From the NCBI RefSeq assembly GCF_000002075.1, contig NW_004797368.1, positions 663,428-727,427 on the forward strand: a stretch of 64,000 bases of DNA. Direction: 5' to 3'. The position numbers were made by a program, and so were the translations under genes. The notes under the pieces were generated by a model, which was not told the origin of the DNA, did not search any database, and saw nothing but the letters and a program-made list of their open reading frames with translations. The DNA is from Aplysia californica (Eukaryota). This document shows, in pieces, positions 20,795 to 52,400 of this stretch. Positions within the stretch are counted from its first letter, which is position 1; each line of letters starts with the position of its first letter.

Positions 20795-20863
<69 letters not shown>

Positions 20864-23800
20864 TATATATCGATATAGTTTATTATATTATCTGTATAGT
20901 TTATTATATGAACTCTCTCTTTCATAGATTTTATTCATACTTACTTGAGTTACAGATTTTTACAGGATGGTCACGTTTCTTCTTCTCATAGAGAGGCAGT
21001 GAACTTTTCTTTCTTGTGTTTCTTTTTAGAGCTTTTTCTCACAACTCTTTTCTTTTCTCTCTTTGTTGCAGCTTGTGGTTGGAGTAAACCAAGAAAGTCA
21101 AAGACAAGGTAAATATGGTACAAGAACCCATGTCATATCACCTTGTTTGTGTGTTGACTTTGTTTCAGAGGCTGTCATGTAAAATAATGTGCCCCCTCCC
21201 CCCGGGGCAGTGCCACTGATTGTAGTGTCTTTAGGCCATTCCCAAAGGGGGGACATTTTTCGTTCAAGCACAGTAGAATTGTAAATGGGCTGATTCATCA
21301 TGTCACGCTCATAACTGTGCCTGATCTGCAACAGGGAATTGCTGCTTTTTCTTTCCTAATCCTTACTATTGTCATTTTCCTCTACTTCTTTTGTATGTTT
21401 GTCACTTCTTGTGACCTGCTATTTCCGGGGTGCCTTGATAGTCAAAGCAGACCTTGTGCTGTTGAAGCTAGAGAGGTGAGCAGAGTAAGTTTGATTTTCT
21501 GTAAGGACTTTTCTGTTGACACCCACTCCTTGGCGCTCATATGACCTTATGCAGTTGCGAGCACAGTAAAACCCTCTACTAAAAAAAAATAAAAAAATAA
21601 TGTGTTATGATTTGAAAGTTTAAATGCATTATTACTCTTCCTTTGTAAATGGTGCTTTTAATTTATTTGATTTTGGGCAAAGCTTTTAGTACTCAGCGAT
21701 AGATTAGTGAACACTCTGGTGTGCCTGTGATCCTTGTATGAAAAAAAGTTTAGTACAGTAATGGAAGGAAGGAGTTGGACAATATTTGCACAGTTTTGAA
21801 GTTATGCCACAAGAATCAATATTGTTTCTTTTTATTTCATCTTCAGGTAATGATTGATTTTCATTTAAGCCTACCTTTCATAAGAAATTTTAAGAATTGT
21901 TTTGATTATTTCAGTAATGTTTAAGGGTCAACTGACTGACAGCAACTTTAAAAAAAGACGGTTAACTGATGTTCTTTTCTTTTACTTGCTATGTCTGTTA
22001 CAGAGTTTGTATTTTTTCATAATTCAGTTGTAGTTCTTATATTGACTGTTTATTTATCTTGTTAGCTTTGATTTAAAAAAAAGAATTAACTGAGACATTT
22101 TTCTCATCTCCAATTTTACTGAGAAAGTGTAAGTTACATTGTATTACTTATCATCAATGTGGCATATAAGTTAATTCCTGTGTTATTTCTGTCAGGTCTT
22201 GAGGCAGCTACTTCGTCCACCACACTGTCAACAGCAGCAGTGACATCAGCAACATCAACATCGTCATCCACATCATCATCATCGCCGCCACCAGCTGGTC
22301 CCAGACCGTACCTGGACCTGGACTTGTTCTCCTCAGCTCGTGCACGTGGGTACAGCACAGAGCAAATCTCTGATGCCATCATCACCTTCTTTTACCTGAC
22401 TTGTGAGTCACTCCTCTATACAGAGCAAATCTCTGATGGCATCTCACCTTCCTTTATCTTTTATATCTTCTCTTCACCCATGAGATAATCTTTCCTCACA
22501 TATGTTATAAGGCTGGTTGGGAAAAGGGTTATTTTCTGAAAATGTCTTGTAATCTAAACTGGCATTCAAGCAATTTAGTGCTAGGGATGAGTTGTTTCAT
22601 GAACAACATTGTTGTTTTCACTTGTAATGAAATATGTATAGAGAAAGGATTTTTTTAAAATCTTTGCCTGATTGAGCAGATATTGTTGTTGCAAGAAAAA
22701 TTAGGAACTCTGTTTGATACTGCTTTAAGTGGTGAGTAAAAATAATCAGAGTTTCTAATTTTTCTTCCAACAACAAATCAACCTCTCAGAGTAAGACTCA
22801 GTCATACATCACTCTTCAAAACAGCATATGGTGGAGTCTTACACTTAGCGACCAAAATGTCATGCAGTTTTCTTTTATAATTAAAAATCTATCATGTAAA
22901 TGTACTGATGTTGTCCAACAGCTGACTTTGCCTGTTCACTTTTTTGTAGCCGTTATTTTTCTAAAGTTAGAAGCTGTCAGTGAACAATGTGGTGTAGTTG
23001 GTAGAGTGTTTACTATATGTGTGTGTTTGTGTCTTCAGGTGGCCAGTTCCCCGACTCTCCCCTCCTGCTGGGTCTGCTCAAGGCTGGCACTGACAACCAC
23101 AAGACACTCTGTGACAAGACACAGGAAAACCTGGACATCAGGTCGGAGAACCAGGTCATTAAGTCAGAGGTCCGGGTCATTAAGTCAGAGGTGAAGGCCA
23201 AGGACACAGAGATCCAGGCCAAGGACACAGAGATCCAGGCCAAGGACACAGAGATCCAGGCCAAGGACACAGAGATCCAGGCCAAGGAGAGAGAACTCCA
23301 GCGTCAGAGGTTTGAGCGTCACTGGCGGGAGCTGGCCATGAATCAGGTGAGCTACAACCTTTGACCTTTGTGACTTCACCCCATTGGTGTTATAATATGT
23401 TCAGATTACTTGACCATCTCACCTTTGACCTCTGTGCAACTGTATTGTGTGTTGTGTCATTGATGGCAGACCAGACTGTAGGCAAAGACTTGGGATAAAT
23501 AAGAACAGCCACATTCTGTGTTTCTCTGTGCTAGAGCTCCTCTCAGTGTTAACACATCTCTCTCTCCTTGCCAGTTACTCTGGTAGTGTTGATGAAAGGT
23601 TGAGGTTCAAAGCTGAGTGGGTTATGAATCTTTCTCTTCCTTTCTTGAAGCTTTCTTTTGGGACAAGTGCACTGACTTTAAAATTATGGGTGGTTAGTGT
23701 GTGTTTTTATGTGGCCCTCTCTTTCTACTTCTTGTCACTATTACATGTATGTCATTTTATTTTTTCTCTCTCTCCTTGCCCATTACTGTGGCAGTGGTGA

Positions 23801-26800
23801 TGAAAGGTTGAGGTTCAAACCTGAATAGGTTATGAATTTTTCTCTTCCTTTTTTGAAGCTTACTTTTAGAACCAAGAGTTGAAGAGTTATGGGTGATAAG
23901 TGAGTGCTTTTGTGTGGTCTGCTCCTCCTACTTCTTGTTGCTGTTATAATTCTGTCAGTCTGTGTTTTGCTTTAGGTGACTGTTGTTGTACTGACTCACT
24001 GTAATAATAACCAAAGTGGTATTGTGGGTAGTTGGAGGGTGTCACTGGTGGTAGTTCTTACTTCTTTTCCATGCCCCTGTTGTTTTTGTCTCTGTTTAAT
24101 TTAATCTTTCTTTTTTTCCTTCTTCCCATTATTGTGTTGATATAATGCTTTTCTTTACTGGAAAAAGTGATGACTAGTAGGTTGTTATAGTCCCATCGAG
24201 AATAGATGGGTATAAAAATGGAAGAATTTTGTGGCATTGTTTTTCTCTTCTTTTGCTCTTTTTAGCTTAGATGAAATGGTTGATTGCTTATTAGGGAGTG
24301 TGTTTACAAAGTCTTTTTTTTTTTGGAGGGGGAGGGTGAAATGAGAAGTCAGGAGTGTAGGCAGAAAGTTCAGAAAAATGATTCTGTTAAGCTCAACTTT
24401 TTCCCCCTTTTTTATTGTCAAGTGGTGATCCACCCAATGATTTGGTTTTACAGGGATCTTTGTTGTTTTGCGCAGTATCCAGTCATGTGACAATCTTTTG
24501 TTAATTTAAGCTAGATTTTGTTCATGCTGGGTTGCTTTTTTTCTTTTAAGGTATCATCCATTTATTAATGTGTCTGTGCTTTTGTTAGTAATATATGGGG
24601 GTTGTTGGCGGGCTCTCTGGTCTGGTTTGCTCCTTCTTTGTTATCAAACATCTATCGTCCTTATCTTTGCTTCTTTTTTTCTTTATATAAATGTGTTACT
24701 CTCTAGTACCACTTCTAATATTTGGCATTTATGTGACCTATTTGTGTTGCAATTGCCTTAAAACTCCTACTCAAATTAATAGACTAATGATGCATAATGA
24801 ATGGTAAGAGTGTTGTAATGATAATGATAGAATGCAGTTGTACTAGGTTTTTTCCATGCTTTAAAGAGTAATTTCTAGATTTTGCCATCTATTGTTACAT
24901 TGACAAACCGCCTTATTTGCATTCTGAAATAGTTTCAGTCTTTTTAGAAACATTCAATGCTGGAACATAAACGTACTGAATAGATCTTTCACTGTCTTTT
25001 CTGGATACCCATTCTCACCTTTATGAAGTGAAGAAAATTTGTGGAATGTGTCTTTCCCAAGAACGCATTAATGGTTTTGGACTGAAATCCAAACTAGCAA
25101 CCTTTTAGCTGCAAGTTGAGCAGACTAACTACTTGACTATCAACACCATCATTGCCATGATAATTGTGTTGTTGAGCTGATCTTTGTTTCGGGTCTTTTG
25201 GTACAGGGGGGTGGCTGGAGGGGGGATGTAAGAGAGTGAGTGGGGAATTGATTGATAGGTTGTGTCAACCAGATCTGTTTATTGAATAACTTGTGAGGTG
25301 TCTGTACATTAATGGGGTGTTCACTTGATGAAGTTAATAAAACTGGAACGTTGTGACATAATCACGTCTTTCTACTTTGATTTTTCTTGAGAACTGTAGT
25401 CGTAATTAGTACTTATTGGAATTTGAATTTGATTAATGTTCTGGCTTGCAAGGTGAACCTTTTGATATGGGCATAATGTCATTGTCTGAGCATCCCGTTA
25501 TCAGCTGTAGATTTGTTACATTCTCATGAGATTTGAGCCACTGCATTAGAGCAAGGTTTGACATAATGATGTAGTGTTGAAAAATTGTAATCTTGAATGT
25601 GAGGTCTTTCATTTTTATTTCTTTTCAGAAAAGTGTGTAATTGTTTGGTTGGTGGTTGGGGGGTGCTCTGGTGTGGTTTGCTCCTTCTTTCCAATGAAAC
25701 AACTGTCGTCTTTATCTCTCCTTCTTTTTTATGTTGTTTTTTTTGTCTCTTGTAACACCTCTAATCTTCGGCACTTATATGACCTAATTGTGTTGCCAGT
25801 GCTGTAAAACTCTTACTAAAACAAAAATAATTGTTAAGTTTTTTTTTATACAGATTTTTTCTATTTGTGTACAATCTTTGTCTTCAGGTCATAGAGGAGT
25901 TGGAAGAAAAAGACCAGGTGATAGAAGAGAAAGACCTGGTGATAGAAGAGAAAGACAGGCATTAGAAGAGAAAGACCAGGCATTAGAAGAGAAAAACCAG
26001 GCACTCTTCACCAAAGATCTACAGCTGTCTATGCTGAGACAAGAGTTACAAGAAATGCGTGAACGTCAAAGACCTCGGTCAGCTCCCCTGGACAGACTGG
26101 ACTTTGAGACAGAAGGTCAGTTTGTTGACACCTGTTTTGTTTTATGTGTAGGAACTGTGTTGTGTTAAGACCTTGTCATCTTTGTGTTTTTTGTCCATGG
26201 TATTAAGACATCAGTAGGATATTCAGTTCCCAAAGATTTGCTTCAGTGTTATGAGGTCTTTGGTCTCATCATTGACCCTCTGAGGATGCACTTTTGTTTT
26301 TGGTTGCTTGTACATGGACAATGTCTTTACATCATTACATCATAGGGGGTGTTATTCTTTATTTTGTTTCAGATCAGTATCAGTATTCTTCTTCAAGGCA
26401 TTAGTATTTTATGCTAACGGTTTGGAATGGTTGTAGAACAGTGAGCTTCACCTGTTATGTTGTTCATGTAGCCTGGACTAATGACATTTTTCTTTTTGAA
26501 ACGTAAACTTCTAGAGATGACCCAAGAAAGCTTTAATCCTTTATTTTCAACAAAACTCCAGTTAGTCCTTGTTCAGTGTGCAACTATAGTTCAGCATGTC
26601 TTTGCTATACATTTTTTTTAAAAAATCAATTTTTCAACAGTTTTTGCAACTGATATTGATACATTTCAAAGTGTCATGTTGATGGTAGTCAATCTAATGT
26701 TGATAGAAATGCAACAGCCACTATTGTATACTTTTCTGTTTTGAGAGAATTGATAGAGAGCCTCTCTTACTTCCCATTTCTCGAGTATGTTTGCTTGGCT

Positions 26801-27144
26801 CCTCTTCTTTTTTTTTTTTGCGACATTAATGTTTTGATTATCATTATTTATGTTGATATGGGTAGACCTCTATTGCCTACTTCTCTGTTTTCTCAAACCA
26901 CTTAACATACTGCTCATCCACAGACCAATCTGACGACCCGGATGTGAGAGAGGGTCAGAACAGTAGTCATATTGAAGATGTAAATCTGATGTCTTGCCCA
27001 ATGTGTCATGATGCGCCCATCCAAGTTTTGCTGCGTCCATGTAAACATCTGTGTGGCTGTGCTCTGTGTGTCTCCAAACTGGACGGACGATGTCCTTATT
27101 GTAGACGCTTCACCACTGGGATGGAGAAAGTTTTTGTCCCATGA
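16292..27144 (+). CDS. IAP/BIRC-like gene copy A (3xBIR-UBA-coiled coil-RING), possibly disrupted; exons 16292-17231, 19927-~20060, 21072-21108, 22196-22402, 23039-23346, 25888-26115, 26924-27144
   Basis: Three BIR zinc motifs and the C3HC4 RING CPMC..PCKH..C..C..CPYCR; exons match copy B one to one. The 3' end of exon 2 is aberrant and exon 6 has a 1-nt deletion. Confidence 0.85.
17375..18182 (-). mobile_element. MITE / non-autonomous DNA transposon (CAGTC termini, TA flank) in intron 1 of copy A
   Basis: Reverse-complement homolog of 60079-60882; ends TTCGACTG-TA. The left end is degenerate. Confidence 0.75.
19927..20060 (+). CDS. IAP copy A exon 2: second half of BIR3 (3' boundary uncertain)
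   Basis: cctcag acceptor; HNDMVRCFSCGVELFDWIPGADPLTQHACASPVCCFMLHSKGQE, then TGG TAA. Confidence 0.85.
20790..20878. repeat. (AT)n microsatellite
   Basis: Direct. Confidence 0.95.
21190..21600 (+). mobile_element. Dispersed retroposon, family 3 (SINE or LINE 3' UTR) with A-rich tail
   Basis: Homologous to 50898-51315; tail GCTCATATGACCTTATGCAGTTGCGAGC. Confidence 0.75.
22196..22402 (+). CDS. IAP copy A exon 4: Ser/Thr-rich linker and start of UBA-like domain
   Basis: gtcag acceptor and gtgagt donor; ARARGYSTEQISDAIITFFYLT. Confidence 0.85.
23039..23346 (+). CDS. IAP copy A exon 5: end of UBA-like domain and heptad coiled coil (AKDTEIQ x4)
   Basis: ttcag acceptor and gtgagc donor; 21-nt repeats. 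Confidence 0.88.
25888..26115 (+). CDS. IAP copy A exon 6: second heptad block, frameshifted by a 1-nt deletion near 25957
   Basis: GAAGAGAAAGAC(C)AGGCATTA unit lacks one C; the exon is 228 nt (3n) whereas the paralogous exon is 220 nt (3n+1). Confidence 0.8.
26924..27144 (+). CDS. IAP copy A exon 7: RING finger and stop
   Basis: ccacag acceptor; IAP-type C-terminal RING ending KVFVP*. Confidence 0.92.
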
Positions 27145-29491
27145 GGATAAATATTGATACTTTTTTTTATACGTGTTACATGATAGATTCTCTTGAAATG
27201 AGAGACTTTGCATTTTAAATTGCTCTTTTATAAATTATTTAAATTTGGGTTGTTTCGTCTGGTTGTAAATTATGACTATTTTACCCAACCTAACATGACT
27301 TAAGGCTCTGTTGTGATAGATAATCCCCTTACCTTAGAAAAGAGACATGTCTCCTCGAAATATTAATTAAACAGGATAAAAATTTCTTTTGTAATAAATT
27401 ACAAGTAAATCTAGATTTGGGCCAATTGCGAAGGGGAAACTGCCAGATGATTTTGTGGAAGATAGCTACGCAGTCGAGTGTTTTGAAGACAGGTGATGGT
27501 GGGCAAATTGATGGGATTGGTTTTAAAGATTAAAAACTGTTTAAATGGCTTCTACATAAATGGTACCGTACTTTGTACACCAGATTTCTCAAAATTAACT
27601 TTTGGTGAGACATTGTTCATACTGAGAGAATAGTCTCATGCTCATAGTGTGTGAACTGTTGATGTCTATTCTAAGTAACCTGTCATGTTTCAAATTCAGG
27701 ATGATAATGATTTAGGAACCATATTTGACACTTTTTCTAGATAAACACCACTTGTCCAAGTCACAGGCATCTCTAGTGTCCTTGTTAGGCTCTTTGTCAT
27801 AGGACGCAAATAACCTGAGTCAGAGCGCACATGGAATCTTTTTTGTCAAGTATCTCCTTTCTCTCTGCCGAGATGCTGTAGGCCTACCACTCTCAGCCTG
27901 GGTTGGTCCTCACAGTAGGATTAGAAAGCCAGCTTCATTAATGCTCTAAATTGTATTGATGGGGTCATAAAACAGTTTGGTTTTTTAAAAGTAAGTCGTT
28001 TGTAGCTGACTGTCTTAAATTTGGGGTTTTTCGACAAGGATATTCTGATCTCATACAAGAGGGCAAAAACACAAATATGCTGTTTTTTGTTTTTTTTCTC
28101 ATTTTGTCTTGTCCTCGTTACAAAAACACACAGGTCTAAACTATTGTTTCTGTCATACTTTTGATCTATTTTTTTCTTCAATTAATTCATTACCATGTTG
28201 ACCCTCGCATGTTTTTTTTAAAGTCATTGCTAAAGTTGTTGTGTAAAGTCTTGATATAAAATTGCGAATTTCTTCCAATGCAGATACATTGCATCCTGAA
28301 CAAAAGGTCTCTTCATTTGTCAAGTCTTACTTCATTTTACAATTGTTGCAAGCTTATTTCAAGCAGACAGTGTTTACTTTATTTGTAATATATTTTTTGT
28401 TTCAACGTGGTGTCTTGTTTATAGTACATAATATGCTCTACACATGTTGCAAACCATAGTTTTACTGATAAAATACAAATGCACTGCCCAAAAAGGCTAT
28501 TGATATGATTCTTTATATATATGACGCAAATAAATTTAGAATGTTAGGCATGATATGGTCCATCCTATGAATTCGCAAAAGTTGGCAGCAGATATTTTCA
28601 TTAGTCATTTAGGAACATGCCCATTGTCACATTACTCACATCATTGTTTCAGATCATACAAGAGGACTTTAACAGAAAATCTTTAAGTGCTCATGATTTA
28701 TTTGCAGTCATAATAATTGGTTGGGAAAACGCACTTACTCGTACGATATAAAGTGAGACAATGCAGTGCATAGCAAAAATTAACTCTGTACACACAAACT
28801 TTGCCAGGGAACATGATGTTCATTAATGTTCTTGAATATTTTTATGAGACTGTTATGATTCTCCTGATTTGTCCCTCTGTGAAAAAGAGTAAGAAATGTA
28901 CACCTGTTACATTTGTCTATAAAATGGAACTAACTATCCTTTTGCATTTTGTGGCCCTAGTTATCCGGCATTTTTTGTAGGCCTATTTATAAAATGAGAA
29001 CAACCCTTCAGTTTTTTTCTTTTTCCCTTCTAAGCATCACATTTATTGGCACTGTAGAAATACCAACTGAAAATGTCTTTTAAGTGAAATTTTTACACAA
29101 ATTTTTATCAATTTAATTTCTTTTTCCTTCTACATTTCTTTTACCTTGGTACGGTACTCCAAGCAAACAGACCACACCTTTGATAGTTTTATTTATGAGA
29201 ATTATTGATTTTGAATGGCAGCTGTGCATCTTTTTAAAATTTTTACCATCAAGGACATTTTTGTAGATTTAAAGGACTCGAAAGATTAGTTTGATGTGGA
29301 GATTCCTGTGCCACAGGAGTGATGGCCCATGTTAGTGTATGGCATTTACTGTTATTTGGAAGGAGAAGTAATCATCTCAGCATAAAAAAGGTAGTTTGTC
29401 TAGAAACTCCTGCACAAGCTTTTTTATATACTCTTTTTGTTATCTGCAGTATTGTTTTAAGGATTGTATTTGTATTTGTTGGATTGAAGTA

Positions 29492-30184
29492 CAGTTGTCT
29501 CCGCCTAAGATCCCAGTGCTCAGGAGCAAGGAAAATGCTGGATCTTAGGCGAATGGAATCTTCGCTGACGAACCCAGGAAGGAACCTACGGAGACCCATG
29601 TTAAGGCTCACAATCGGTAAAATGGTCTCCCTTCACTCTGAAATTAACTGATGTGACCCTTGAGTGGGTTTATGACATGGTGAGCAAAGAGTTGTCAATT
29701 TTGATGACCAATGACAGTGGCATGAGGCATGCCATTTATACTTATTATCCTATCGTGAGTTTCGAGATCTAGTGAAATGGAGAGCTCAGATGCGAGTGCG
29801 ATGTTTGAGGATAACAAATGCGATGGTCAGTTCACACCTCGGTGTGATCCCGTCTGGGGCAAACATTGTACTGTTTTATCAAGTTTTACAACGCTTATGT
29901 GATCACATTCCAGGGAGTGACTGACCTTTGACGCGAGGGGCAGTTCATTGATCTCAACTTTTCACTCTTGGTTGATCAGCTGTGCCCGCCTGGGATTTTG
30001 TTCCATAAATTATGATCTGAAATGCAGGGTCTTACCCGAATGTAGTATGTAGACCTTCAGAGTGAATAAGAGCAGGATCTTAAGGGTGACTTTTGTATAG
30101 TAAAAATTTTGTTTTCTTAAAACAGCGGGATCTTATTAAGCGAAACAGGATCGTAAGCAGTGGGATCTTAGGCGGAGACTACCG
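29492..30184. mobile_element. MITE with ~23-bp TIRs and TA target-site duplication (Tc1/mariner-pogo-like)
   Basis: TA-CAGTTGTCTCCGCCTAAGATCCC ... GGGATCTTAGGCGGAGACTACCG-TA. Confidence 0.85.
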
Positions 30185-30818: not shown

Positions 30819-30850
<32 letters not shown>

Positions 30851-30939
30851 CCAAATTGTACATGGTTAATATAAATCTGACTCTCTGTGTGTGGTTCTAT
30901 GTGCTTGCACTTGCATCTGTGTATGAGAGTAGATTCAAT

Positions 30940-36434: not shown

Positions 36435-37374
36435 ATGGCGTCAAATTCATACATGGAAAGACTTCGCACCTTTCATCCTCCACTGCCGCAAAACTTTGTC
36501 AGTTCACTCTCCAACACTCCAGTGAAGTTTGCTGAAGCTGGCTGGGAACGTGCAGGCAATGTTCCAATCTCATCAGATGAGTTAGTATGTCGTTCTTGCA
36601 GTATTAAACACAGTGGTTGGTCAGGGGAATCGCCCCTTGCTGTCCACAGAACCAGAAGTCCAAACTGTCCATTTCTAAACTCGGAACCCAGCACCCCTTC
36701 TCATTTTGTCAATGTTGTTGGCGATAGTGAAACAATATCACCCTCTGTTTTCAATGAAACAATTGAGAAAGCACACATACAGGAGGCAGGAACTATATTT
36801 TCAATATGTAACTCATGTGACACAAGCAATAGAGAAACTCTGAAAAGGAAATTGTTTTCGAATCAATCCAACAGATTAGCCAAATATGGCAGACGTCAAC
36901 CTATTTTACATCCCTTTAAACCCCTTGCTGGTGGGTATCCAATGTTGTTTGAAAGTCTTCGACTGACTACTTACAGTTTACCAAGCTCAGTTGAGGCGGC
37001 AAAATGGTCAAGGGATGGCTTCATCATGATCTCTATCCTCCGAGCCCAGTGTGTTTTCTGTGGACTCCAGTTGGAGTTTGACGTGTGTGTTGACATTGGA
37101 TATGTGCACAAGGAAAAGTCACCTGAGTGTCCTTTTGTGTGTCACTTTGACATGGGAAATATTGCGAGTGAAGAGCAGAGGAGTATTCTGGAGAAAGAAC
37201 GTTCGAAACATTTTGTGGACATTAATGAATGTTTTTCTTCAACTAAGTATAGTGTCATGTACCCTGAATTTGAGAGTTCATCAGACAGATCCGGTACATT
37301 TAGTTTGTGGCCAAAGGTTCTGAAAGGAATGTTTCCCCCTGATGTGATGGCAGATGCAGGTTTCTTCTACTCAG
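36435..37374 (+). CDS. IAP copy B exon 1: BIR1, BIR2 and half of BIR3
   Basis: ORF from ATG; DAGFFYSG|gtgggt. Confidence 0.92.
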
Positions 37375-40300
37375 GTGGGTCTCATCTTCATTAGTTATTG
37401 ATGTAAAGAGCTCTGAATCGTTGCTGTCGTGCTCCAAACCCCCTAAGCGCGACCGACATTTTTTTATAGGAGAGCTTTTTTTGCCAAAAGGTGGGGTTGT
37501 TTGCATGAGGACTTTTTAAATCAACCACTACTCATGGAAAAATATGTTTTCTTCTGAAAACTTTATGCATATGGCAGGGAAATAAGTTGGTCAAGCTGCA
37601 TGAGCAAGTAGATTGATGTGTGCATCTTATATATCTCTTCATAGAAAGATAATAATACTAAAAATAGGGCATTTTTTACTCACCCTGAGTGCACACGTAN
37701 NNNNNNNNNNNNNNNNNNNNNNNNNNNNNNNNNNNNNNNNNNNNNNNNNNNNNNNNNNNNNNNNNNNNNNNNNNNNNNNNNNNNNNNNNNNNNNNNNNNT
37801 CTCTCTCTCTCTCTTTCTTGTCTCTTTAATCACAATTATTTCAACACCCTTCTCAAGAACATTTCATCCTTCAAGTGTCGACAGGCTATTAAATTGGCCA
37901 TAAGTTTCATTTTGTGGTGTCGTGACCACTTTTATTGGCCGTAATTTGAGTCACTAATTTGATTTGTTAATTATGTTTTACGGCATGTGTGTAAAAAAAA
38001 CTGTAAAATTATTCAGTCCTCCTCAGTCAATTTCCTTCATTATTTTTTTATGAAACATTTATTCAAATTGAGATTAAGTCCCTAAAATTTTATTATAGAT
38101 TTCGAAATTATTTATATGAGGTTCCACTCGTTACTGTCATTGGTCATTCATCATTGTCGTATGTCAAAATACAAAATTTACAAAAGAAAAAAACATAGTG
38201 TTGATATGATACTGACTAATATTATCAACTCAAATTTTAGCAAAGAGAAGCTATATATATATTATAAACCTATCTGTCTGCCCCGATCAATATCAGTCGT
38301 AAGATGCACTGTGGTATAATCAGCACGAGGCTCGAAAGGCAAAAAAGTGACTTTTCATGACATTTTTTTGTGGTATATATTGAACATTTGATGTCTTCTT
38401 CTTCATAAGATAAAAATGAACAACTATAATCGACTCTATAAATATTTTATTTTGGAGGTGTGTGTTTATAAAAATTCGTTTTTATTGTGTTTTAGAGCTT
38501 TTAAAAGATTAATTAACCTTCCTCTAGATCTCTCAGAGCGGACTCCTTACCATGAGGTNNNNNNNNNNNNNNNNNNNNNNNNNNNNNNNNNNNNNNNNNN
38601 NNNNNNNNNNNNNNNNNNNNNNNNNNNNNNNNNNNNNNNNNNNNNNNNNNNNNNNNNNNNNNNNNNNNNNNNNNNNNNNNNNNNNNNTATTGCAAACGTA
38701 CAAACGTATAATCAGGTTGCGTAAACATGACAGTAAGCCGACTTGCGGCCTTCCGAGCGCGTGGTTTCGGTGAAATGGGGTAGTTCAGATCTCTCTTTCT
38801 TTGCTCTTTTGCTATAAAACACCAAATGCTCAACACTTTGAAAATTTTCCGGTTTTCTTTGTTATAATAATATTAATAATGTAAGTTGTTTGTATATCGG
38901 GGTAGTTGGGGCTGGAGAATCGCTGTAGAAAGGGAAGCCCCTCGCTGTCAGAATGTGAGGCCCCCCGGTTCAAAATTGACACCCATGCATATGAATGCTT
39001 GGCGGAGAACTATACAGATTTGAGCGTGGTTTCCCGTGCTTTTTATTTTTTGGCCTTTGGCGTTTAGATAGAAAACCTTGAAAAAAGGTCTTGAGTTTTC
39101 AAATATCATTTTTAACACGAAATGCGTAAAATTACGGCTAAAAAAAGGTACCAGTAGAAAGAACAGTTCTTTTTCTTTTAGTTTTAGAATAAAGTCATCA
39201 GCTTGGAATTATTTTGCATGAATCCTTTTGCGAAACTACTGGTAGCACTCCGTATACTACGGTATTTAGCCGGCTCGCTCGCCGCGAAGGCTGGTGCGAG
39301 GCCGGGCGAGACAACGCTCGATGTTTTTATTGAAATAATGACAGATCATTGTGTTTGAGGCAATAAAATACTGATTTGTAATGATCTCACCGTCTTGAAA
39401 AATATTAGGCTTCATCTCTATGTTATAGAGATTGTACTCTTAAAATGTAGAGATGTTTGGTGCACTCGGTACTCTTTTAGTATCTGTCAAACATGCGGTT
39501 GCAGCCAGTTAACGACTTCAGCAGTGAAGTCCATTCTCGTAAAAATTTTGTTTGGTCAATAAGTTTTTTTTTCTCTGTAAATGAATAGTTTTCTACTTCT
39601 GTATGTTACCTTCTAATGGCATATAGCCAAGATAACTGCTAAGTTACAAGTCTCTATTTCAATTCTAAGACCCCATTGCTATGGAAACATGTTGCTCAAT
39701 TTCGGAGGCCATTTTTTCCTTTTCGTGTTTCCTCACATTGCACAATTAAAAGTTCTGTATTTTCGTCAAATATGGTTTTATTTACTTCATTCTTGTTTAA
39801 AATTGTAGGGAAAAGGTGATAGTTTTTAAAAATAATATTAACTCAGTTTTGATATTTCTTCATATGATATTGACCGGCAGGGACACATATATATGCTTCC
39901 CTCAGGTCACAATGACATGGTACGTTGTTTCTCCTGTGGTGTTGAACTCTTTGACTGGATACCTGGTGCTGACCCCCTGACCCAGCATGCCTGTGCCTCT
40001 CCTTTCTGTTACTTCTTGCAGCAGAACAAAGGTCAAGAGTTTATCAATGGCGCTCAACATCAAGAGGTGAGTTGCACAACTTTTTATTGTTGTCTTCCAT
40101 ATTTTGTAACAGTAACTGACATTTTTAACTTGAAATTAGTATTCAGCTTGATAATGTAATGATGCATATTTTTATAGATTTTCCTCAGTCAGGATTTTCC
40201 TCGGTCTAAAGTTGAAACATTGGGTTGTCCCGTTTAATGTTTTACTTACTTTTGTGATTGTGGCCTTTTTAAAATGTACCTCTCAGATTATTCTAAACAA

Positions 40301-42387
40301 TTACTCCTTTTCGTCTGTATGCGCTGGATCCTTCTACTGGAATTTACCGTCCCGTCATCTTATTAGTAAGCCTCCCTTTAAGTGATGTAGAAGACTACCC
40401 TTCTATTAAGACCGGTATTTTGATATTTGAAGGGTTAAACTTTTCACTCAGAGGATCATGGACATTGATTGTTCAAAGTGAACGTAAAATGAGCTTTTAG
40501 AATCTTTTTCTCTTTTTTTTAAACAGTGTTTCTCTCATTATTAACTTGTTTTGTTTTTCTTATATTCTTTACTGCAGCTTGTGGTTGGCATTAAACAAGA
40601 CAGTCAAGCTCAAGGTAGAGTTTACTCTCTAATTGTTGTATGGAGCATACATGGATGTTTTTGTGTTTTTTTTCTTTCTCTCTGTTACTGTATCAATAAC
40701 AAAGTTTTGAAGTTTTTATCCTACTAATTTCTATTTGTTTTGCTTTGTGAGCTTTTTTTTCTTACCAAAGGATTGAATTATTAGAACAGCTACCTTTATC
40801 TTGCACATGATAATTCCCTCTTTTGGGATTGTAACAACAACACTATCTGGCGACAGTAAACAATGGCTGATCATTACATAATGAGCCAGAAATGACACCT
40901 CCAGGTATTCCAGGTATCTGGATAGTTCTGTTTGGTGGAAAGTTTTCATGTATAAATAAATGAAAAAAGTCTGTGTTGTAAATTTTGTAAATATTGTTTT
41001 GTAAAAACGGGGGCTCTCGTGGCCTAGAGATTAAGGTGTTCGCCTCTCATTCAATAGGTCCCAGGTTCGAATCCGGATAGTGACGCAAATTTTTCTTATC
41101 TAAAATTGTCTCCTTTCACCTCCTTTCCTGCTTTCTAGCAATGTTCTGTCATCTGCTTTCGTTTCCACTTTCTGCCCCCACCCTTTCTCCCCCTTCTCCC
41201 CCTCCACTGGGCTACTGACTCTTTTGAGTCCCTCATCCTTTGGTAGGAAAGATCTACACCTAGCCATATCGGACATGGGCGAAAAATCTCAGTGGTCCCA
41301 TATGCAAGTTGCGCACGTTAAAGATCCATTGGTGGTCCAAAATCGATAAGAGCGATAAGAGTAGGCCTCAGCCGCCACCCGGGCAAAATTCAAAATTTCC
41401 TACCAACAAAAAATGTTTAATGTGTCCGGTGTGCTCATATGACCTTATGCAGTTGCAAAGCGCTATAAGACACAAGTTACCCAAAAAAAATTTAACGGAA
41501 AAAATAGTAACAACTCAGTTCTCAGACTGGGGTATTTGTAGAGAATGTAAGTTACTGTCTCAGTAAAAAGATTGGTGAATGTTGTGTTGTTTTTATGTTA
41601 TCCTATTGTTAATGGTCTGCTTTATCTTTTAGTTTTATTGCCAAACCTTTTATAATTGTTTGATGCAATCAACACCTGTCTACCTAGTATAACAGCTATT
41701 TCAATGGACAGATGTTTTTTTCTTCAGTAATTTCATTCAAGTCATGCAAAATATACCATGCTGTATATAATAATCTTTATCACTGAGTCACTGAGTTGAC
41801 CTATTTTTTTTCTTCATTCTGATCAGATCTGGAGGCTGCTACATTATCCACCACACCAACTACCGCAGCAACATCAAACCCATCATCATCGCCACCACCA
41901 GCTGGCCCCAGACCGTACCTGGACCTGGAGTCTATCTCTGCAGCTCGTGCACGTGGGTACAGCACAGAGCAAATCTCTGATGCCATCATCACCTTCTTTT
42001 ACCTGACTTGTGAGTCACTATTCAACAAAAGAAGTAGTTGCTTTTATACAGAATGTCAAGTGACTCTTACAGGGAGTGGGTTGGAGTTGACTTCAGATCT
42101 TCTGAGGTTTAAGGATACAGAGTAAATTTGTATAAATTGTATGTTGTTATTTAAGCTGCTGAGAACGGAATAATTGTTTTTCTGTAAAGTTTAAATCATT
42201 CGTGGCTCCAAACAAGATAATTGAGAGGCCTAGTGAGATGATGTTGATATTCATTTGTCATCATTATCATCATCATGATCATGATGATGATGATGATCAT
42301 CATCATCATCATCATCATCATTTTCATCATCATCATTTTCATCATTGCCATCAACAAGCATCATCATCCTCATCTTCATCGTCGTCG

Positions 42388-42439
<52 letters not shown>

Positions 42440-42505
42440 TGTCATTGTCATCATCATCATTTTCATCATTGCTATCAACAAGCATCATCATCATCATCGT
42501 CATTG

Positions 42506-42572
<67 letters not shown>

Positions 42573-45500
42573 TGTCATCATTGCCATCAACACGAATGCT
42601 CACAGCTGACAAGAGTGATCATGGTGCTCTTTCTCTCCCTGTCAGTGTTCCGACACTGTTAGTTCAGCGGTTCCCTCCATGCTCTCATCTGGCTGTTTAA
42701 TGCTCTATTGTCGTATATATCAGCTTTGTGAAACAAGTGAGGATTATAACATCCAAAACAACATCAAAAGTATTTTACTAAATCAGAGCATCTTTCAACC
42801 ACCAACTTAGAGATCTTGCAACTCGTGTTTCTCTGAGACTGTCTGCTGATTGAAAATAATACCTCGCATACATGTTGAAATTTGTTAGGAGTGACAAGTG
42901 CATGTGTGTGGTTTGTTTGGTTCTTTTTTATACATGATGCTTTTATTTCCCTAGTTTGCTTCCTACAACCTAACATGATTTTGTGGCACTGATTGAACTT
43001 AAACCCCCAAACTGAAATTCATCTCCATGCGGAGAGAGAGAACTGACCTTGATAGGTTTATATCACAAAAACTCTTTCATGTTTTAACTAAGATAGTTTT
43101 TTTCAAGAGGCTTGAATGTTTTGAATCTGAGAAATATGTCATAATATCCCGCACTTTGTGTTTATCATGTTTTTGAATGGTGTTTTCTCTTCTCATCAAT
43201 TTATACAAGTGGGCTATACTATGTAGATTACTTGTGTGTTGTAGTGAATAAAGTTTTTTACCCTGTGTGTGTTTGTGTGTCCAGGTGGCCAGTTCCCCGA
43301 CTCTCCCCTCCTGCTGGGTCTGCTCAAGGCCGGCACTGACCACCACAAAACACTCTGTGACAAAACACAGGAAAACCTGGACATCAGGTCGGAGAACCAG
43401 GTCATTAAGTCTGAGGTTGAGGTCATTAAGTCAGAGAACCAGGTCATTAAGTCAGAGGTGAAGGCCAAGGACACAGAGATCCAGGCCAAGGAGAGAGAAC
43501 TCCAGCGTCAGAGGTTTGAGCGTCACTGGCGTGAGCTGGCCATGAAGACAGAACTGGAACAGGTGAGCTACAACCTTTAACCTGTTTGACCTTTTCACAC
43601 TCCTGCTAAAATAAAAAATATCTGAACCTGTCCTTGTTGACCGTTGTAACCTCATAACCTTACTAACCAGTCCAAAATGTAACCCCTCACTTTTCATATT
43701 TGGGACGGCCTCACACAGCTAGTTATATAATGTATATATAACCATCTGATCCTCCCCTGTGCCCTTTTGTTTTTGGACAATATTGTTTAAATGGATGGTT
43801 TTGATCTTATGAAGGCAAAGCACTTGTTCCGTACTACTACCAGAAAGAAAGAAGACCGAGACAACACACCATAGCTGATATTACATGGCTCCATTCTGAT
43901 GCATACATTGAGAAGTGTGTTATTTTACTACTGGAGAAGTTGCTCCTCCAGGTGGTGTGCAGTGGGCTTATATGTTTCTCCATAACCTTCTGGTTAGAGC
44001 TATTTATGACTGTATTGTGACTGAGCAGACAATAATTTTTGTCTTCTCAGCTGTTATCGAACATTTGAGATGACCAGGCTGTGTAGGCTATCTCTTTGCT
44101 AAGGGTCATCTCAGTGTTAAGTTACCTCTCTGCCAGATGCTGTGTCATTGCATTGGTTTAGAACTTGACATTGTTTAGAATGAGGAAAGAGAAGCACATC
44201 AGTATGATAACATTCATTAAGTTTTTGAAAAGATCAAGGCTGATGGATTGACAGAAACTAGAGGAGGAATGAAAAAGGACCTCATAGTGACAGCTATAGA
44301 ATTTGACTCAAATATTCTAGGTGAAAGTTTGAGCTAGAATGAGGTATGAGTTTTCTTTGACCATCTTTCTGGAAAGGAGAGTCCACAGTTTGATGCACTT
44401 ANNNNNNNNNNNNNNNNNNNNNNNNNNNNNNNNNNNNNNNNNNNNNNNNNNNNNNNNNNNNNNNNNNNNNNNNNNNNNNNNNNNNNNNNNNNNNNNNNNN
44501 NNNNNNNNNNNNNNNNNNNNNNNNNNNNNNNNNNNNNNNNNNNNNNNNNNNNNNNNNNNNNGTGCGTGTGCGTATTTATGGGTGTGTTTGTATGTTTGTG
44601 TGTGTTTTGTATGTTTGTGTGAGTGGGTGTTTGTGTGTCCGTAGGTGTGTACATATGTAAGTACTTCACCATGGTGCAACAGTTACAGGCTGGAGAAACA
44701 CACAGAAATGACAGTAAGAGCGGGCATAATATAAGCTATGCTCGACGAAAGGTCTAAATTGCTAACATCTCATCTCGCGAGATCTCATAAGACGCAGTCT
44801 GCTGAACTGTTACATCTTTTCTATATCAACGTACAACCAGAAGTTTGGTCTACAAGCAGAGATCTTCAGAATAAGATTAATGTTTTTTAAATGTAGTGTT
44901 ATGTGAAAATGAGCAACATCAGGTGGAAAGACTCCCGAAAACCAACGAAGAAGTATGCCATATAACAAGAACATCACCCTGGCTTCCAAACAAAATGAAC
45001 ATATTAAACTGCAAAATTGTTCTCCTCCTATAGAGGCATAATGCACTTTTAAAAGAAGTACTAGGAGGCAAGCGAGAAGGAATGAGGGCAGTAGGAAGGC
45101 ATGGTCTACTTTGAGCTGGCTCGTAAAGTCATGGGCAGCGCTATCGTTAGAACAGTGCACCAGAGCAGCTGACAAACGGAGTGAATAGCGTACGTCGTGT
45201 TTTACTAACGTATCCATCCGACGTGGGGAACTCTGTGCCACCACTTTCCAAAGAGGAAATTTACTCGTTAATCCGATCCGTATACTTTGCATAACAGTCT
45301 ATCAAAATGATTTTTTGAGAAACACTGAATGTTTCAAAGAGATCCTCGCAATAGAAGCATTCTAAAATGTGAAGAATACTACCCCGGGGGTGCAAAATGA
45401 CCCCAGGGCATACGGATAGAGTTATGTGTCAACCTCAGAGGCCTCCAAAGAGAGGACTCCTCCAACCTATCAAAGTATATTTGTTCGTTTGTGTATGTGT

Positions 45501-46402
45501 GAGTGTTTGTTTGTTTGTGTATGTGTNNNNNNNNNNNNNNNNNNNNNNNNNNNNNNNNNNNNNNNNNNNNNNNNNNNNNNNNNNNNNNNNNNNNNNNNNN
45601 NNNNNNNNNNNNNNNNNNNNNNNNNNNNNNNNNNNNNNNNNNNNNNNNNNNNNNNNNNNNNNNNNNNNNNNNNNNNNNNNNNNNNNNNNNNNNNNNNTGC
45701 AGTTGCAAATGGCTATAAAACACAAGTTACCCAAAAAAATGTTACGGAAAAAATAGTAAAAATTCAGTTCTCAGACTGGGGTATCTGTTTCATTCAAGTC
45801 ATGCAAAATATACCATGCTGTATATTATAATCTTTATCACTGAGTCACTGAGTTGACCTATTTTTTTTCTTCATTCTGATCAGATCTGGAGGCAGCTACA
45901 TTATCCACCACACCAACTACCGCAGCAACATCAAACCCATCATCATCATCGCCACCCCCAGCTGGTCCCAGACCGTACCTGGATCTGGAGTCTATCTCTG
46001 CAGCTCGTGCACGTGGGTACAGCATAGAGCAAATCTCTGATGCCATCATCACCTTCTTTTACCTGACTTGTGAGTCACTACTCAACAAAAGAAGTAGTTG
46101 CTTTTATACAGAATGTCAAGTGACTCTTACAGGGAGCGGGTGGGAGTAGACTTCAGATCTTCTGAGGTTTAAGGATACAGAGTAAATTTGTATAAATTGT
46201 ATGTTGTTATTTAAGCTGCTGAGAACTGAATAATTGTTTTTCTGTAAAGTTTAAATCATTCGTGGCTCCAAACAAGATAATTGAGAGGCTTAGTGAGATG
46301 ATGTTGATATTCATTTGTCATCATTATCATCATCATTTTCATCATCATCATTTTCATCATTGCCATCAACAAGCATCATCATCATCATCTTCATCGTCGT
46401 CG

Positions 46403-46442
<40 letters not shown>

Positions 46443-49400
46443 TGTCATCATCATCATTTTCATCANNNNNNNNNNNNNNNNNNNNNNNNNNNNNNNNNNN
46501 NNNNNNNNNNNNNNNNNNNNNNNNNNNNNNNNNNNNNNNNNNNNNNNNNNNNNNNNNNNNNNNNNNNNNNNNNNNNNNNNNNNNNNNNNNNNNNNNNNNT
46601 CACAGCTGGCAAGAGTGATCATGGTGCTCTTTCTCTCCCTGTCAGTTTTCCGACACTGTTAGTTCAGTGGTTCCGTCCATGCTCTCTTTGGGCTGTTGAA
46701 TGCTCTATTGTCATATATATATCAGCTTTGTGAAACAAGAGAGGATTATAACATCCAAGTATCTTACTAAACCAGAGCATCTTTCAACCACCAGCTCAAA
46801 GATCTTGCAACTCGTGTTTCTCTGAGACTGTCTGCTGATAGAAAATAATAACTTAACGGGTTGAAATTTGTTAGGAGTAGACAAGTGCATGTGTGTGGTT
46901 TGTTTAGTTCTTTTTTATAAGATGCTTTTATTTCCCTAGTTTGCTTCCTGCAACCTACTTGATTTTGTGGCACTGATTAAACTTGAACCCCCAAACTGAA
47001 ATTCATATCCATTTGGAGAGAGAAAACTGACCTTGATAGGTTTATATCTCAAAAACTTTTTCATGTTTTAACTGAGATAGCTTTGTTCAAGAGGCTTGAA
47101 TGTTTTGAATCTGAGAAATATGTCATAATATCCCGTACTTTGTATTTATCATGTTTTTGTGTTTTTGAGTGGTGTTTTCTCTTCTCATCAATTTATATAA
47201 GTGATGCCATGTAGATTACTTGTGTGGTGTAGTAAATAGAGTTGTTTACCATGTGAGTGTTTGTGTGTACAGGTGGTCAGTTCCCCGACTCTCCCCTCCT
47301 GCTGGGTCTGCTCAAGGCCGGCACTGACAACCACAAGACGCTCTGTGACAAGACTCAGGAAAACCTGGACATCAAGTCGGAGAACCAGGTCATTAAGTCA
47401 GAGAACCAGGTCATTAAGTCAGAGGTGAAGGCCAAGGACACAGAGATCCAGGCCAAGGACACAGAGATCCAGGCCAAGGAGAGAGAACTCCAGCGTCAGA
47501 GGTTTGAGCGTCACTGGCGTGAGCTGGCCATGAAGACAGAACTGGAGCAGGTGAGCTAGAACCTTTGACCTGTTTGACCTTTTCACACTCCTGCTAAAAT
47601 AAACAATATCTGAACCTGTCCTTGTTGACCTTTGTAACCTCATCACCTTACTAACCTATGTAGTAACCCCTCACCATTCATCTTTGGGACGGCATCACAC
47701 AGCTAGTTATACATACATATAAAACCGTCTGTTCCTCCCTAGTGGCCTTTTGTTTTTTGACCATATTGTTTAGATAGATGGTTTTGATCTTATGAAGGTA
47801 AAGCACTTGTACCGTACCAGGAAACAGAGAAGATGGAAACAATACCCCGTAGCTGATATTACTTGGCTTCATTCTCATGCATACATTGTGAAGTGTGTTA
47901 TTTCAGTCTTGAAGAGGTTGCTCCTCCAGGTGGTGTGCAGTTGGTTTATATGTTTCTCCATAACCTTCTGGTTAGAGCTATTTATGACTGTATTGTGACA
48001 GAGCAGACAATAATTTTTGTCTTCTCAGCTATTATCGAACATTTGAGATGACCAGGCTGTGTTTCTCTTTGCTAAGGGTCATCTCAGTGTTAAGTTACCT
48101 CTCTGCCAGATGCTGTGTCATTGCATTGGTTTAGAACTTGACATTGTTTAGAATGAGGAAAGAGAAGCACATCAGTATGATAACATTCATTAAGTTTTTG
48201 AAAAGATCAAGGCTGATGGATTGACAGAAACTAGAGGAGGAATGAAAAAGGACCTCATAGTGACAGCTATAGAATTTGACTCAAATATTCTAGGTGAAAG
48301 TTTGAGCTAGAATGAGGTATGAGTTTTCTTTGACCATCTTTCTGGAAAGGAGAGTCCACAGTTTGATGCACTTANNNNNNNNNNNNNNNNNNNNNNNNNN
48401 NNNNNNNNNNNNNNNNNNNNNNNNNNNNNNNNNNNNNNNNNNNNNNNNNNNNNNNNNNNNNNNNNNNNNNNNNNNNNNNNNNNNNNNNNNNNNNNNNNNN
48501 NNNNNNNNNNNNNNNNNNNNNNNNNNNNNNNNNNNNNNNNNNNNNNNNNNNNNNNNNNNNNNNNNNNNNNNNNNNNNNNNNNNNNNNNNNNNNNNNNNNN
48601 NNNNNNNNNNNNNNNNNNNTAGAAATAATGCTTTTAAAATAAATAAAGAAATTGCCTGCACGCACCTTCACTCCTTTACCAGATTTATGAGCAAGCTTGA
48701 AAATAAAGGATACATTCGTGTGAGCCAGTATAAAATTAGGATACTGTTAATTATTGCTTTACTTCACTTGTCTGTAAAGATTTATTTTAGGTTAGTTTAT
48801 TAGGATTTAAATTCGTTAAAAGTACATTTCATGGCTCTCAGTGGCCTCAGCAGTGTCTGTAAAATGTCCTGTCTTAAAAAGAGGTATGATGGAAGAAAAC
48901 CGTGTTGTAAAATAACTATTTACCTTCTCAGCCTTTATTTGCTTCTCTTATACTTCTTAATCATGTAACTGTAATAGAACTGTATAATCTGCCCCTCTCC
49001 CCCCCCCCGCCCCGTTCAACACATACAGAACTGGTAGACTGTTTTTTACTATTTTATCAAGATTTTTTCATTAGGCCAGAGACTGCTCGTTTGGTAGGTG
49101 TTGATTACCCCTCCTCACCTAAATATCCTGTAATGAGGGTTTTCACTTCAGGGGGTCTCTCATAGGGTACCTTTAATTTAACTTTTTCCTTTTTCCTTTA
49201 ACTGGTACCAGTGTGTGTAGCGGGGAGAAACAAATGTCTGACAGCAACAAGTCAACTGGCTTAGAGGAGGGTCAAGTTGTGGGTGTTCTGACGATATCCT
49301 TAACAGAGTCGATCCAGCAATGTCTTGGTCTCCCTCTGTTTCTCCAGCTAGAGTACCACTCAAGGAAATAATGTCTTTGTTCCTGTATTGTGAGGCCTTG

Positions 49401-52400
49401 GCTGAGCTTTCCTGGGCATGCTTTCTTACTCAACAAGTCCTCACCACTAGAATAGACTGTTTGAAATTAAGACTACACTCTAAACAAGTCAGATGGGAAA
49501 CTAGAGTGACTTGTTCACCTGGTAGCCTACTCTATGGTAATATTTACACTGCCATGAATTGCGAGCCTGTAGTCTTCATTTTTTGTCCAATCATATAAAA
49601 TGCAAATGGCTAAATAGTCTGTCTTTATTGATAAGCAGTTAGCTCACTTTACTTACATGAATAGAGGACCGAGGTTCAGCGGAAATTGGGATATATACAC
49701 GTAAGATTATCACTTCTCCATCTTGCAGCCTTAGCATGCAGAGTCCCCTAAGAAAATACACTTCTTGATCCTACATCATTTGCTTGCAGGTTGATCCTGA
49801 TNNNNNNNNNNNNNNNNNNNNNNNNNNNNNNNNNNNNNNNNNNNNNNNNNNNNNNNNNNNNNNNNNNNNNNNNNNNNNNNNNNNNNNNNNNNNNNNNNNN
49901 NNNNNNNNNNNNNNNNNNNNNNNNNNNNNNNNNNNNNNNNNNNNNNNNNNNNNNNNNNNNNNNNNNNNNNNNNNNNNNNNNNNNNNNNNNNNNNNNNNNN
50001 NNNNNNNNNNNNNNNNNNNNNNNNNNNNNNNNNNNNNNNNNNNNNNNNNNNNNNNNNNNNNNNNNNNNNNNNNNNNNNNNNNNNNNNNNNNATATATCTG
50101 ACCAGAGAAAGCTGGGGCTTGAGCCTACATGTTTGGATGGGAATTGGGTAATTGAACAGGCAGATAAAGTGGATTTACTGAGAGTGTGATATACATACTC
50201 AACACCCACTGGATAAGTGAGTAGTGAGCTGAGAACTTTTCTCCTCCTTTCTCAAAGATTGCTTGTCAGTTTGAAGACGTTATTCGATCTCTATTTATAT
50301 TTTGTGACTTTTGCAGGTGATAGAAGAGAAAGACCAAGTGATAGAAAAGAATCTACAGGTGATAGAAAAGAAAGACCAGGTGATAGAAAAGAATCTACAG
50401 GTGATAGAAAAGAAAGACGAAGCACTCCACAGCAAAGACCTACAACTGTCCATGCTGAGACAAGAGCTAGAGGAAATACGTGAACGACTCAGACCTCAGT
50501 CAGCTCCCTTGGACAGACTGGACACTGATGCTGAAGGTCAGTTTGTGGACACATTGCTCTCTCTCCTGTGGATTTCCTATCTTTATAAATTTGTTCTGTG
50601 TGCGTTTGCTGCCATGAGAACTGAGAATGGTATAATATATTAAAAATGTTAGTGCCTCCTTTAGTTCAGTGAGAGTGAAAGCCTATCCGATGCAGTATAA
50701 ATAGCAACAGCAATAGCTCTGCAAGGCTATTTAAGAGGTGGGACCTCCAATATTTACATTTATCTGGATCTTTGACAATCCAAAGCCAAGCAGATGGAGA
50801 GCCTTGAAGACTGTTGTTACAACCTACGCTTAATAATGCCTCACTAAGCGGAATCAGCTACCCTGTTGTTCAACATGTCACGAACTGCGTTAGAGATCCC
50901 CCCCCCGCCCCCCCTCCAGGGCAGTGCTATTGACTGAAGTTGCCTTCAGGCCATTCCCAAAGGGGGGATATTAACATGTTCTTATGCACAGTAGAATTGT
51001 AAATAGGCTGATTTATCAACGTCATGTTCATACTGTGCTGGACAATATGGGGGGGAACTGCTGCTTTTTCTTTCCTCATCCTTACTATCGTCATTTTTCC
51101 TCCATATCTTTTGTATGTTTGTCACTATCTTGTGAACTGCTATTTCCGGGGTGCCTTGGTAGTCGAAGCAGACTTTTTGCTGTTGAGGCTAGAGAGGTTA
51201 GCAGAGAAAGCCTTATTCCCCGTTTGGACTTCTCTGTTGACATCCACCCCTTCGCACTCATATGACCTTATGCAGTTGCGAGCGCCGTAAAACCTTACTA
51301 AAACTAAAAAACTAAAGAGATGTGCCCATCTGTAACAGGCATAGCTGTTTGTAGATTCTGTGGTGATAATATCAGTATTGATCTGAGTTTATGCATGATC
51401 TGTCTTTTTTTGAAAATGGTAAAGGTAGGTTGTCGGAGGCCCGACACTGGTAGGTTCTACAGACCTGCCACTCATTTCGATTTAATCAAGATATCCCGAT
51501 TTTTTTAACCTCAAATCTCAAGCATCCCGATTTTCCCGATTTCGATCGCGTGTATTTCAATTTTTTGTACCGTCTGTTGTACCAGATTTTTCTAAAAACT
51601 TACTCTGCCTTCTTCTCTGTCGCGGGGAGCACCCATTAAACTTTTTGTCAGCAGGAACTCGGGACACTATTTACGGAAGTATCGATGCCATATTTTGTAG
51701 TCGACTGGCCCCAAGTTGTGTTGGATCATACTTGCACATGTTATTTCAACTATACCTAATGGAAGTAGTATCGATTTGGCATTCTGGCTTGGGACATTCT
51801 CAATATCTACTTTCGCTTTCGTTTCCACCCAGAATTCTCTGATGATGGCCTGATAGCAGTTTCAATTGCAACATACAATAATCAATACCATTCATAGTTC
51901 TACTGTTACTTTCAAACCTTGCTTTGTACAAGTTCTGGTTAGTCGGGCCGGTCATCAAGACCCATCAGTATATCTGTTGCAGTCACATCACATGACTTGA
52001 GCGTGCGAGTTTCGCATGTGTTGGGGACAGTTCATCGACAATGTCAACTTAAGTTCATGCACACTGGGGGAAGCATAGCATCTTTCCAGACTTGCCGCAC
52101 TCTGACTAGGACTAGGAGTCCTTTACGTGATACTTCAGGATTTTAAAAAAAATTATAAAACACACATACACACACACACGCACGTACACACACACACACA
52201 CACATTGCACATGCATGGATATATTTATAGACAACCCTGGACAATTTTGGCAGCCGCCTTAGTGATTTGTCGTTGGTCCTGATTTTTTTCACCAAATCCC
52301 GATTTTTTCCCTCCTGAGATCCTGATTTTTAGATTTCATACTGTGGCAAGTCTGGTTCTACTCCTTTTCTTCCCCTCTGTTGTTTCTGTCTGTCTTTCCC

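Follow-up and report, generated by a model that had tools for sequence, protein, structure and literature searches.

Inhibitor of apoptosis protein (IAP) genes of Aplysia californica encode, between their BIR and RING domains, a long rod, predicted to be helical, that is built from 21-nucleotide (nt) tandem repeats. A cluster of these genes lies head to tail on the + strand of the DNA analysed here (the window: 64,000 nt, assembly GCF_000002075.1, contig NW_004797368.1, positions 663,428-727,427 of the forward strand), with copy A at 16292-27143, copy B at 36435-52715 and copy C from 61584. The domain order in the tandem genes is three BIRs, a UBA-like unit, the rod and the RING. The repeats encode whole heptads of a helix of about 130 residues, predicted to be a parallel homodimeric coiled coil, and in a subfamily of gastropod IAPs the rod likely serves as a spacer that dimerises and sets the BIR/UBA end apart from the RING. 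Taken as a whole, the best explanation, which we consider probable, is a dimerising heptad-repeat spacer whose length drifts within a loosely tolerated range and does not tune activity.

The repeats form two arrays, one in exon 5 and one in exon 6:
23128-23301, + strand: exon-5 array of copy A, 9 residues and 7 heptads (VIKSEVR, VIKSEVK, four AKDTEIQ, AKERELQ)
43374-43505, + strand: array of exon 5a of copy B, 9 residues and 5 heptads (VIKSEVE, VIKSENQ, VIKSEVK, AKDTEIQ, AKERELQ)
47362-47493, + strand: array of exon 5b of copy B, 9 residues and 5 heptads (VIKSENQ, VIKSEVK, two AKDTEIQ, AKERELQ)
25888-26000, + strand: exon-6 array of copy A, VIE and 5 units, the third of only 20 nt (25939-25958)
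50317-50421, + strand: exon-6 array of copy B, 5 heptads, VIEKKDQ and VIEKNLQ types alternating

The unit counts given for exon 5 in the original prediction, which was made from the letters of the window, are exact: two SExxVI-type and four AKDTEIQ units in copy A, three and one in exon 5a, two and two in exon 5b. Exon 5 of copy A measures 308 nt (23039-23346), both copy B exons measure 278 nt as had been stated, and the second 21-nt series proposed for exon 6 is present in both genes. The arrays are beyond chance, with a perfect 21-nt array of 4.5 copies (Tandem Repeats Finder score 188) and a single 21-mer found letter for letter 19 times among 11 exon-5 copies. They are coding minisatellites, with units placed head to tail and differing in number among copies.

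Genome-wide matches, on contigs C98, C36, C358, C707, C2320 and C2544, number 9 for exon 1, 12 for exon 5 and 11 for exon 6, and the genomic copies are labelled A-K. One exon-5 match, cut by N, and one exon-6 match, with its acceptor in N, were left out, giving 11 and 10 complete copies; D, G, K and F6b have no usable pair of exons 5 and 6, and 8 intact pairs were used. The spacer from TQE to RQRFE is 9+7n residues long in 11 of 11 exon-5 copies, with n of 5 in six copies, 6 in two and 7 in three. Exon 6 holds 3-6 units, and behind a lead of constant length the array is a whole multiple of 21 nt in 8 of 10 copies; the exceptions are copy A, with its 20-nt unit, and F6b, with a broken unit and a stop. 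Two types of copies can be told apart. In the B-type (B, C, D, E and I) exon 5 ends in KTELEQ, and in the A-type (A, F, G, H, J and K) it ends in MNQ and exon 6 begins with VIE. Between A and B, exon 5 differs by -12 nt at its end and exon 6 by +9 nt at its start, which amounts to -1 residue (-4 +3) and not to a heptad, and rod lengths by type are 0 and 6 modulo 7. The claim that steps of 21 nt preserve frame and heptad register therefore stands inside the arrays, where 10 of 12 related proteins also conform, and does not extend to exon 6 of copy A or to the junction that separates the types; because these differ by -1 residue, variation by whole heptads is true within arrays and not across the A/B pair. 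Copies D (C98:751902-754815) and I (C358:788571-791502) are 5.6% apart over introns and flank and have 5 and 6 exon-6 units, possibly an allelic difference in repeat number, as judged from their sequences.

Both exon-6 changes that are not multiples of 21 nt break the frame, and one of them sits in a gene with a second lesion. This gene is copy A, in which the frame is broken by the 20-nt unit of exon 6 and in which exon 2 is also altered:
19927-20062, + strand: exon 2 of copy A, 136 nt against 161 nt in paralogs, compared with the copy on C2320

The 25-nt deletion lies just before the donor, and the spliced frame hits a stop in exon 3. Owing to these two lesions, copy A is likely a pseudogene or a null allele in this assembly. 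Among the contigs listed for run X1 and for run X5, which comes from another sample and study, none bridges the exon-6 frameshift of copy A, and RNA runs gave 0 and 1 raw reads on this exon. Changes of 21 nt would keep the frame and the core and be tolerated, other changes would kill the copy, and selection would remove non-heptad changes from working genes. The number and make-up of units would most likely drift by slippage and gene conversion. Outside its repeats, exon 5 has a mean divergence among copies of 3.5%, versus 12.2% in exon 6 and 17.3% in exon 1; at third positions the values are 8.8%, 18.9% and 22.9%. Exon 5 also ignores the split between A-type and B-type that is visible in exons 6-7. 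This low divergence, third positions included, together with the missing type split points to gene conversion.

AlphaFold2 predicts for the protein P0011 a single helix at residues 79-218 (predicted local distance difference test, pLDDT, 96-98; tails below 50) and for the database model P0008 a helix at 449-592. The predicted order is three short helices, then one of about 140 residues, and then a tail of low confidence followed by the RING. Residues 405-680 of P0008, all from copy B, were the only input to a two-copy model, which scored 0.56 when the best of three controls scored 0.01. Among proteins solved as pairs, 20 of 30 reach the mark for a dimer, and among those solved as single chains 1 of 23 does; in eukaryotes it is reached by 17 of 29 pairs and 0 of 30 single chains, and in animals by 7 of 16. 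At least 76% of contacts are shared between runs and pLDDT is at least 74; the contacts are in register over 461-588, and the period shifts near the junction of exons 5 and 6. The model supports a parallel homodimer of rod residues 461-588.

The BIRs are encoded by exons 1-2 and the RING by exon 7 (Pfam, window exons). PF00653 matches three stretches of P0008 with 93.1 bits (cut-off 22.9), and PF13920 matches both window exons 7 (E-values 2e-11 and 7e-11). The nearest folds of the RING include the RINGs of cIAP2, BIRC7 and XIAP (E-value about 0.004), and the nearest database proteins are named Aplysia californica IAPs. The UBA-like unit has three predicted helices and the MGF motif appears as RGY; Pfam gives no UBA match for it, and none is among the Foldseek matches listed. 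Between this unit and the RING, Pfam gives no CARD match and one unbroken helix is predicted. A family profile aligns to cIAP1 (3T6P) through BIR3 and UBA, and the rod takes the place of the CARD. The Aplysia IAPs resemble cIAP1/BIRC2, of order 3 BIR-UBA-CARD-RING, in their three BIRs, in a UBA-like unit of three predicted helices right after BIR3 and in a C-terminal IAP-type RING. They differ from it in lacking a CARD, in having instead a predicted continuous heptad-repeat helix of 130-140 residues, in RGY for MGF and in the predicted dimer of the rod. PMC13159474 reports that the CARD can inhibit E3 ubiquitin ligase activity by blocking RING dimerisation. In the Aplysia proteins the rod may pre-pair the RINGs for E3 activity and space them from the BIRs, where cIAP1 has this inhibitory domain.

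An internal donor, GTGGGT, is present in exon 4 (22346, 41953 and 46013) in 10 of 10 exon-4 copies found, and its use drops the 19 residues that make up the middle helix of the UBA-like unit. Pairs of annotated isoforms in which this helix (19-23 residues) is missing were seen for 7 gene pairs among 9 comparisons of database models, namely in Aplysia copy C, Elysia crispata, two Bradybaena genes, Babylonia, Gigantopelta and Haliotis. A literature search returned no description of such an isoform.

A profile search over 1.84 billion representative sequences found proteins with the UBA-like motif, the rod and the RING in Elysia, Plakobranchus, Bulinus, Bradybaena, Babylonia, Batillaria, Haliotis, Gigantopelta and Patella. 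Related gastropod IAPs with a rod thus range from limpet to land snail, many of them with heptad repeats of their own. Of 12 heterobranch proteins, 10 have an exon-5 spacer of 9+7n residues with n of 4-7; the exceptions are one Bradybaena protein and one other Aplysia locus. Some period of seven is expected in any coiled coil. The best lag of self-identity is 7 or 14 in 17 of 19 proteins examined, and 11 of the 19 have near-identical repeats (at least 0.76, versus shuffled 95th percentiles of 0.33-0.48), which at the protein level suggests recent duplication. The units differ within the family (QKDTELQ, KDTALQE, HQRDQQL, HEQGQQI, EEEKEQL), and one protein has an 11-residue repeat. The distance from motif to RING is 135-275 residues in 16 proteins. 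A more far-reaching synthesis, for which our confidence is low, would see in these proteins an undescribed gastropod-wide IAP subfamily in which a dimeric coiled coil of about 19 nm replaces the CARD and yields a pre-dimerised E3. Its rod would have been rebuilt repeatedly from lineage-specific heptad minisatellites and shuffled among paralogs by gene conversion, its length being kept close to 130 residues; removal of the middle helix of the UBA by a splice choice, conserved between abalone and land snail, would serve as an on/off switch.

Several observations weigh against loosely bounded drift of a dimeric spacer. The five B-type exon-5 copies all have five units in five different unit strings, and a constant sum arises in 2 of 120 pairings. 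Counts in exons 5 and 6 tend to be inversely related (rho from -0.5 to -0.89, with permutation p of 0.07-0.15 at n = 5-8, the copies not being independent), and the distance from motif to RING falls within 173-206 residues in 13 of the 16 family proteins. A bound on length tighter than plain drift is possible, purifying selection could be a partial cause of the low exon-5 divergence, likeness to solved coiled coils may raise the dimer score, and, with two copies only having been folded, a trimer is possible. Some of these observations favour an alternative that we regard as unlikely, namely that tight stabilising selection acts on the total length of the rod as a spacer of some 19-20 nm, so that losses in exon 6 make up for gains in exon 5 and units are swapped at a constant sum. 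All five B-type exons 5 measure 278 nt, intact sums are 9-11 heptads and the sole 12 belongs to the broken copy A, the family distances cluster although the units differ, and coiled coils conserved in length and not in sequence are a known class (PMC5082667). Against such selection stand the permutation values, obtained on copies that share descent and some of which may be alleles; the ability of gene conversion to exchange units at constant length without selection; the family extremes of 135 and 275 residues; and the linkers beside the rod, which are predicted to be disordered, with the exon-4 Ser/Thr linker differing in length among copies. The equal length of 5a and 5b, offered earlier as a hint of constraint on the rod, gains from the uniform B-type exons and loses in that 5a and 5b may be alleles, that copies of exon 5 are homogenised and that the length of A-type exons is not constant (266, 287 and 308 nt, or 5-7 units). 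Intact rods measure 124-138 residues over the 8 Aplysia pairs, and a loose bound on their length is possible.

The original prediction also proposed a tunable molecular ruler. In such a reading, paralogs or alternative exons with different heptad numbers would set the BIR-to-RING distance and hence substrates or activity. Intact paralogs do differ by whole heptads. One heptad measures about 1 nm, from the established rise per residue, which is small beside the loose linkers on both sides, and fine tuning is therefore unlikely. Rigid coupling at the ends of the rod, as a ruler would have, is not predicted: pLDDT is below 50 at residues 375-412 and 592-640 of P0008 and 221-256 of P0011, marking linkers of low confidence, some 35-50 residues long, at either end. 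The sole choice within a gene, 5a or 5b, yields a rod of the same length, 131 residues, and the long copy A is broken, twice. Despite the precedents of ROCK2 and WbdD (PMC5082667), the predicted linkers, the state of copy A and the 135-275-residue range of the family speak against the ruler, which we hold to be very improbable. Still slightly less credit is due to the notion that the counts differ because short repeats were collapsed or expanded during assembly. The region is gappy, with 11 runs of N in the window and several tandem near-duplicates beside them, and the 94-nt perfect array of copy A is known from the assembly alone. However, most arrays mix distinct units that could not collapse into one another, a 241-nt contig of run X5 has an in-frame exon 6 whose 72-nt array is 41 nt shorter than that of copy A and as long as that of copy J, and proteins of Elysia, Plakobranchus and Bulinus show n = 4-6. 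Assembly error had been named beforehand as what would overturn the counts, and the different counts in other species and in another sample speak for their reality. An artefact is likely for the tandem placing of 4a-5a and 4b-5b only.

The exons of the window genes and the duplicated block of copy B are as follows:
16292-17231, 19927-20062, 21072-21108, 22196-22402, 23039-23346, 25888-26115, 26924-27143, + strand: exons of IAP copy A
36435-37374, 39906-40066, 40578-40614, 41827-42009 (4a), 43285-43562 (5a), 45884-46069 (4b), 47273-47550 (5b), 50317-50536, 52495-52715, + strand: exons of IAP copy B (36435-52715)
61584-63192, + strand: exons 1-2 of IAP copy C, the rest of the gene lying outside the window
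45698-48374, + strand: second block with exons 4 and 5, the homologue of 41448-44401, bounded by runs of N

The frame of copy B stays open with either exon 4-5 pair. The two blocks differ by 2.3% and 7.3% substitutions, and by 0-1% over the last 370 nt or so before the run of N. A similar fall in divergence is seen in H1/H2, another tandem pair around a run of N, and further single-exon tandem pairs adjoin such runs in copies F, G and H. The blocks are somewhat more likely to be two haplotypes placed in tandem; a true duplicate, used either/or, has an appreciable though smaller chance. Serial splicing of 4a-5a-4b-5b was rejected because it would disrupt the frame: the end of exon 5 is in phase 0 and the start of exon 4 in phase 1. 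The idea that 4b-5b are the missing exons of copy D was also rejected; the introns of the block match those of copy B only.

The database models XP_035824826 (P0002) and P0008 fuse exon 1 of copy A (16292-17231) with exons 2-7 of copy B (39906-52715), and P0008 also holds a stretch matching copy F on C36. Being chimeric, as is the annotation of the cluster, they are no evidence on splicing. Proteins with exon 5 from other individuals were absent among short ones, and the longer ones were four Aplysia models only. An element of about 750 nt lies inverted in intron 1 of copy A (17403-18165) and upstream of copy C (60132-60870), the two being 77% alike, and its ends, judged by eye, resemble the inverted repeats of a non-autonomous DNA transposon. 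Interspersed repeats of about 450 nt with a common 3' end occur at 15050-15509, 21194-21604, 41008-41490 and 50908-51324; they are probably short interspersed elements (SINEs). The end of one of them is the start of the duplicated exon 4-5 block. The last 40 nt or so of exon 4 are repeated just within intron 4 (22403-22460) in copy A and most paralogs and not in copy B. Non-coding minisatellites are present at 268-814, 3105-3322, 4249-4701 and 6574-6862, with units of 22, 23, 7 (the telomere-like GGGTTAG) and 33 nt.

Comparable length changes are known from other systems. The coiled coil of mouse LINE-1 ORF1p gains and loses pieces of 66, 42 and 21 bp and ranges from 7 to 12 heptads among families (PMC3600994). 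It thus shifts in heptad steps, like the Aplysia IAPs, and differs from them in being a retrotransposon trimer, whereas they form a multi-exon family of cellular E3s with one array in each of two exons. MSP3-gamma of Plasmodium vivax is likewise a multigene family with predicted heptad arrays that vary in length with phase shifts and are shaped by recombination; it is a surface antigen, and the repeats in its nucleotide sequence do not translate into tandem repeats of amino acids (PMC7335089). In ROCK2 and WbdD a catalytic domain also ends a long coiled coil and length has been shown to set function (PMC5082667), while the rod of the Aplysia IAPs differs in length from copy to copy and is loosely linked at both ends. 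The opposite case, depletion of indels in coiled coils, is reported in PMC8598163. In the main texts of the mollusc and metazoan IAP surveys PMC13159474, PMC8917759 and PMC7831173, the words coiled and heptad occur 0 times, and their supplements may list orthogroup or coil annotation. No description of a coiled-coil IAP or of a heptad minisatellite in E3 paralogs was found in the literature outside subscription journals. Gastropod IAPs with a minisatellite-built rod may be new; length change in heptad steps is itself known, so that the headline of the original prediction will not surprise specialists.

The expansions of IAPs in molluscs have been much studied in relation to stress and parasite resistance, but these proteins are classed by their content of BIR, UBA, CARD and RING. 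The cluster offers a natural series, with n = 4-7 and 3-6 units as well as frameshifted copies, on the length tolerance of a coiled-coil spacer. If the reading is true, the long heptad-repeat rod would be an overlooked architecture in which the RING is switched on in another manner.

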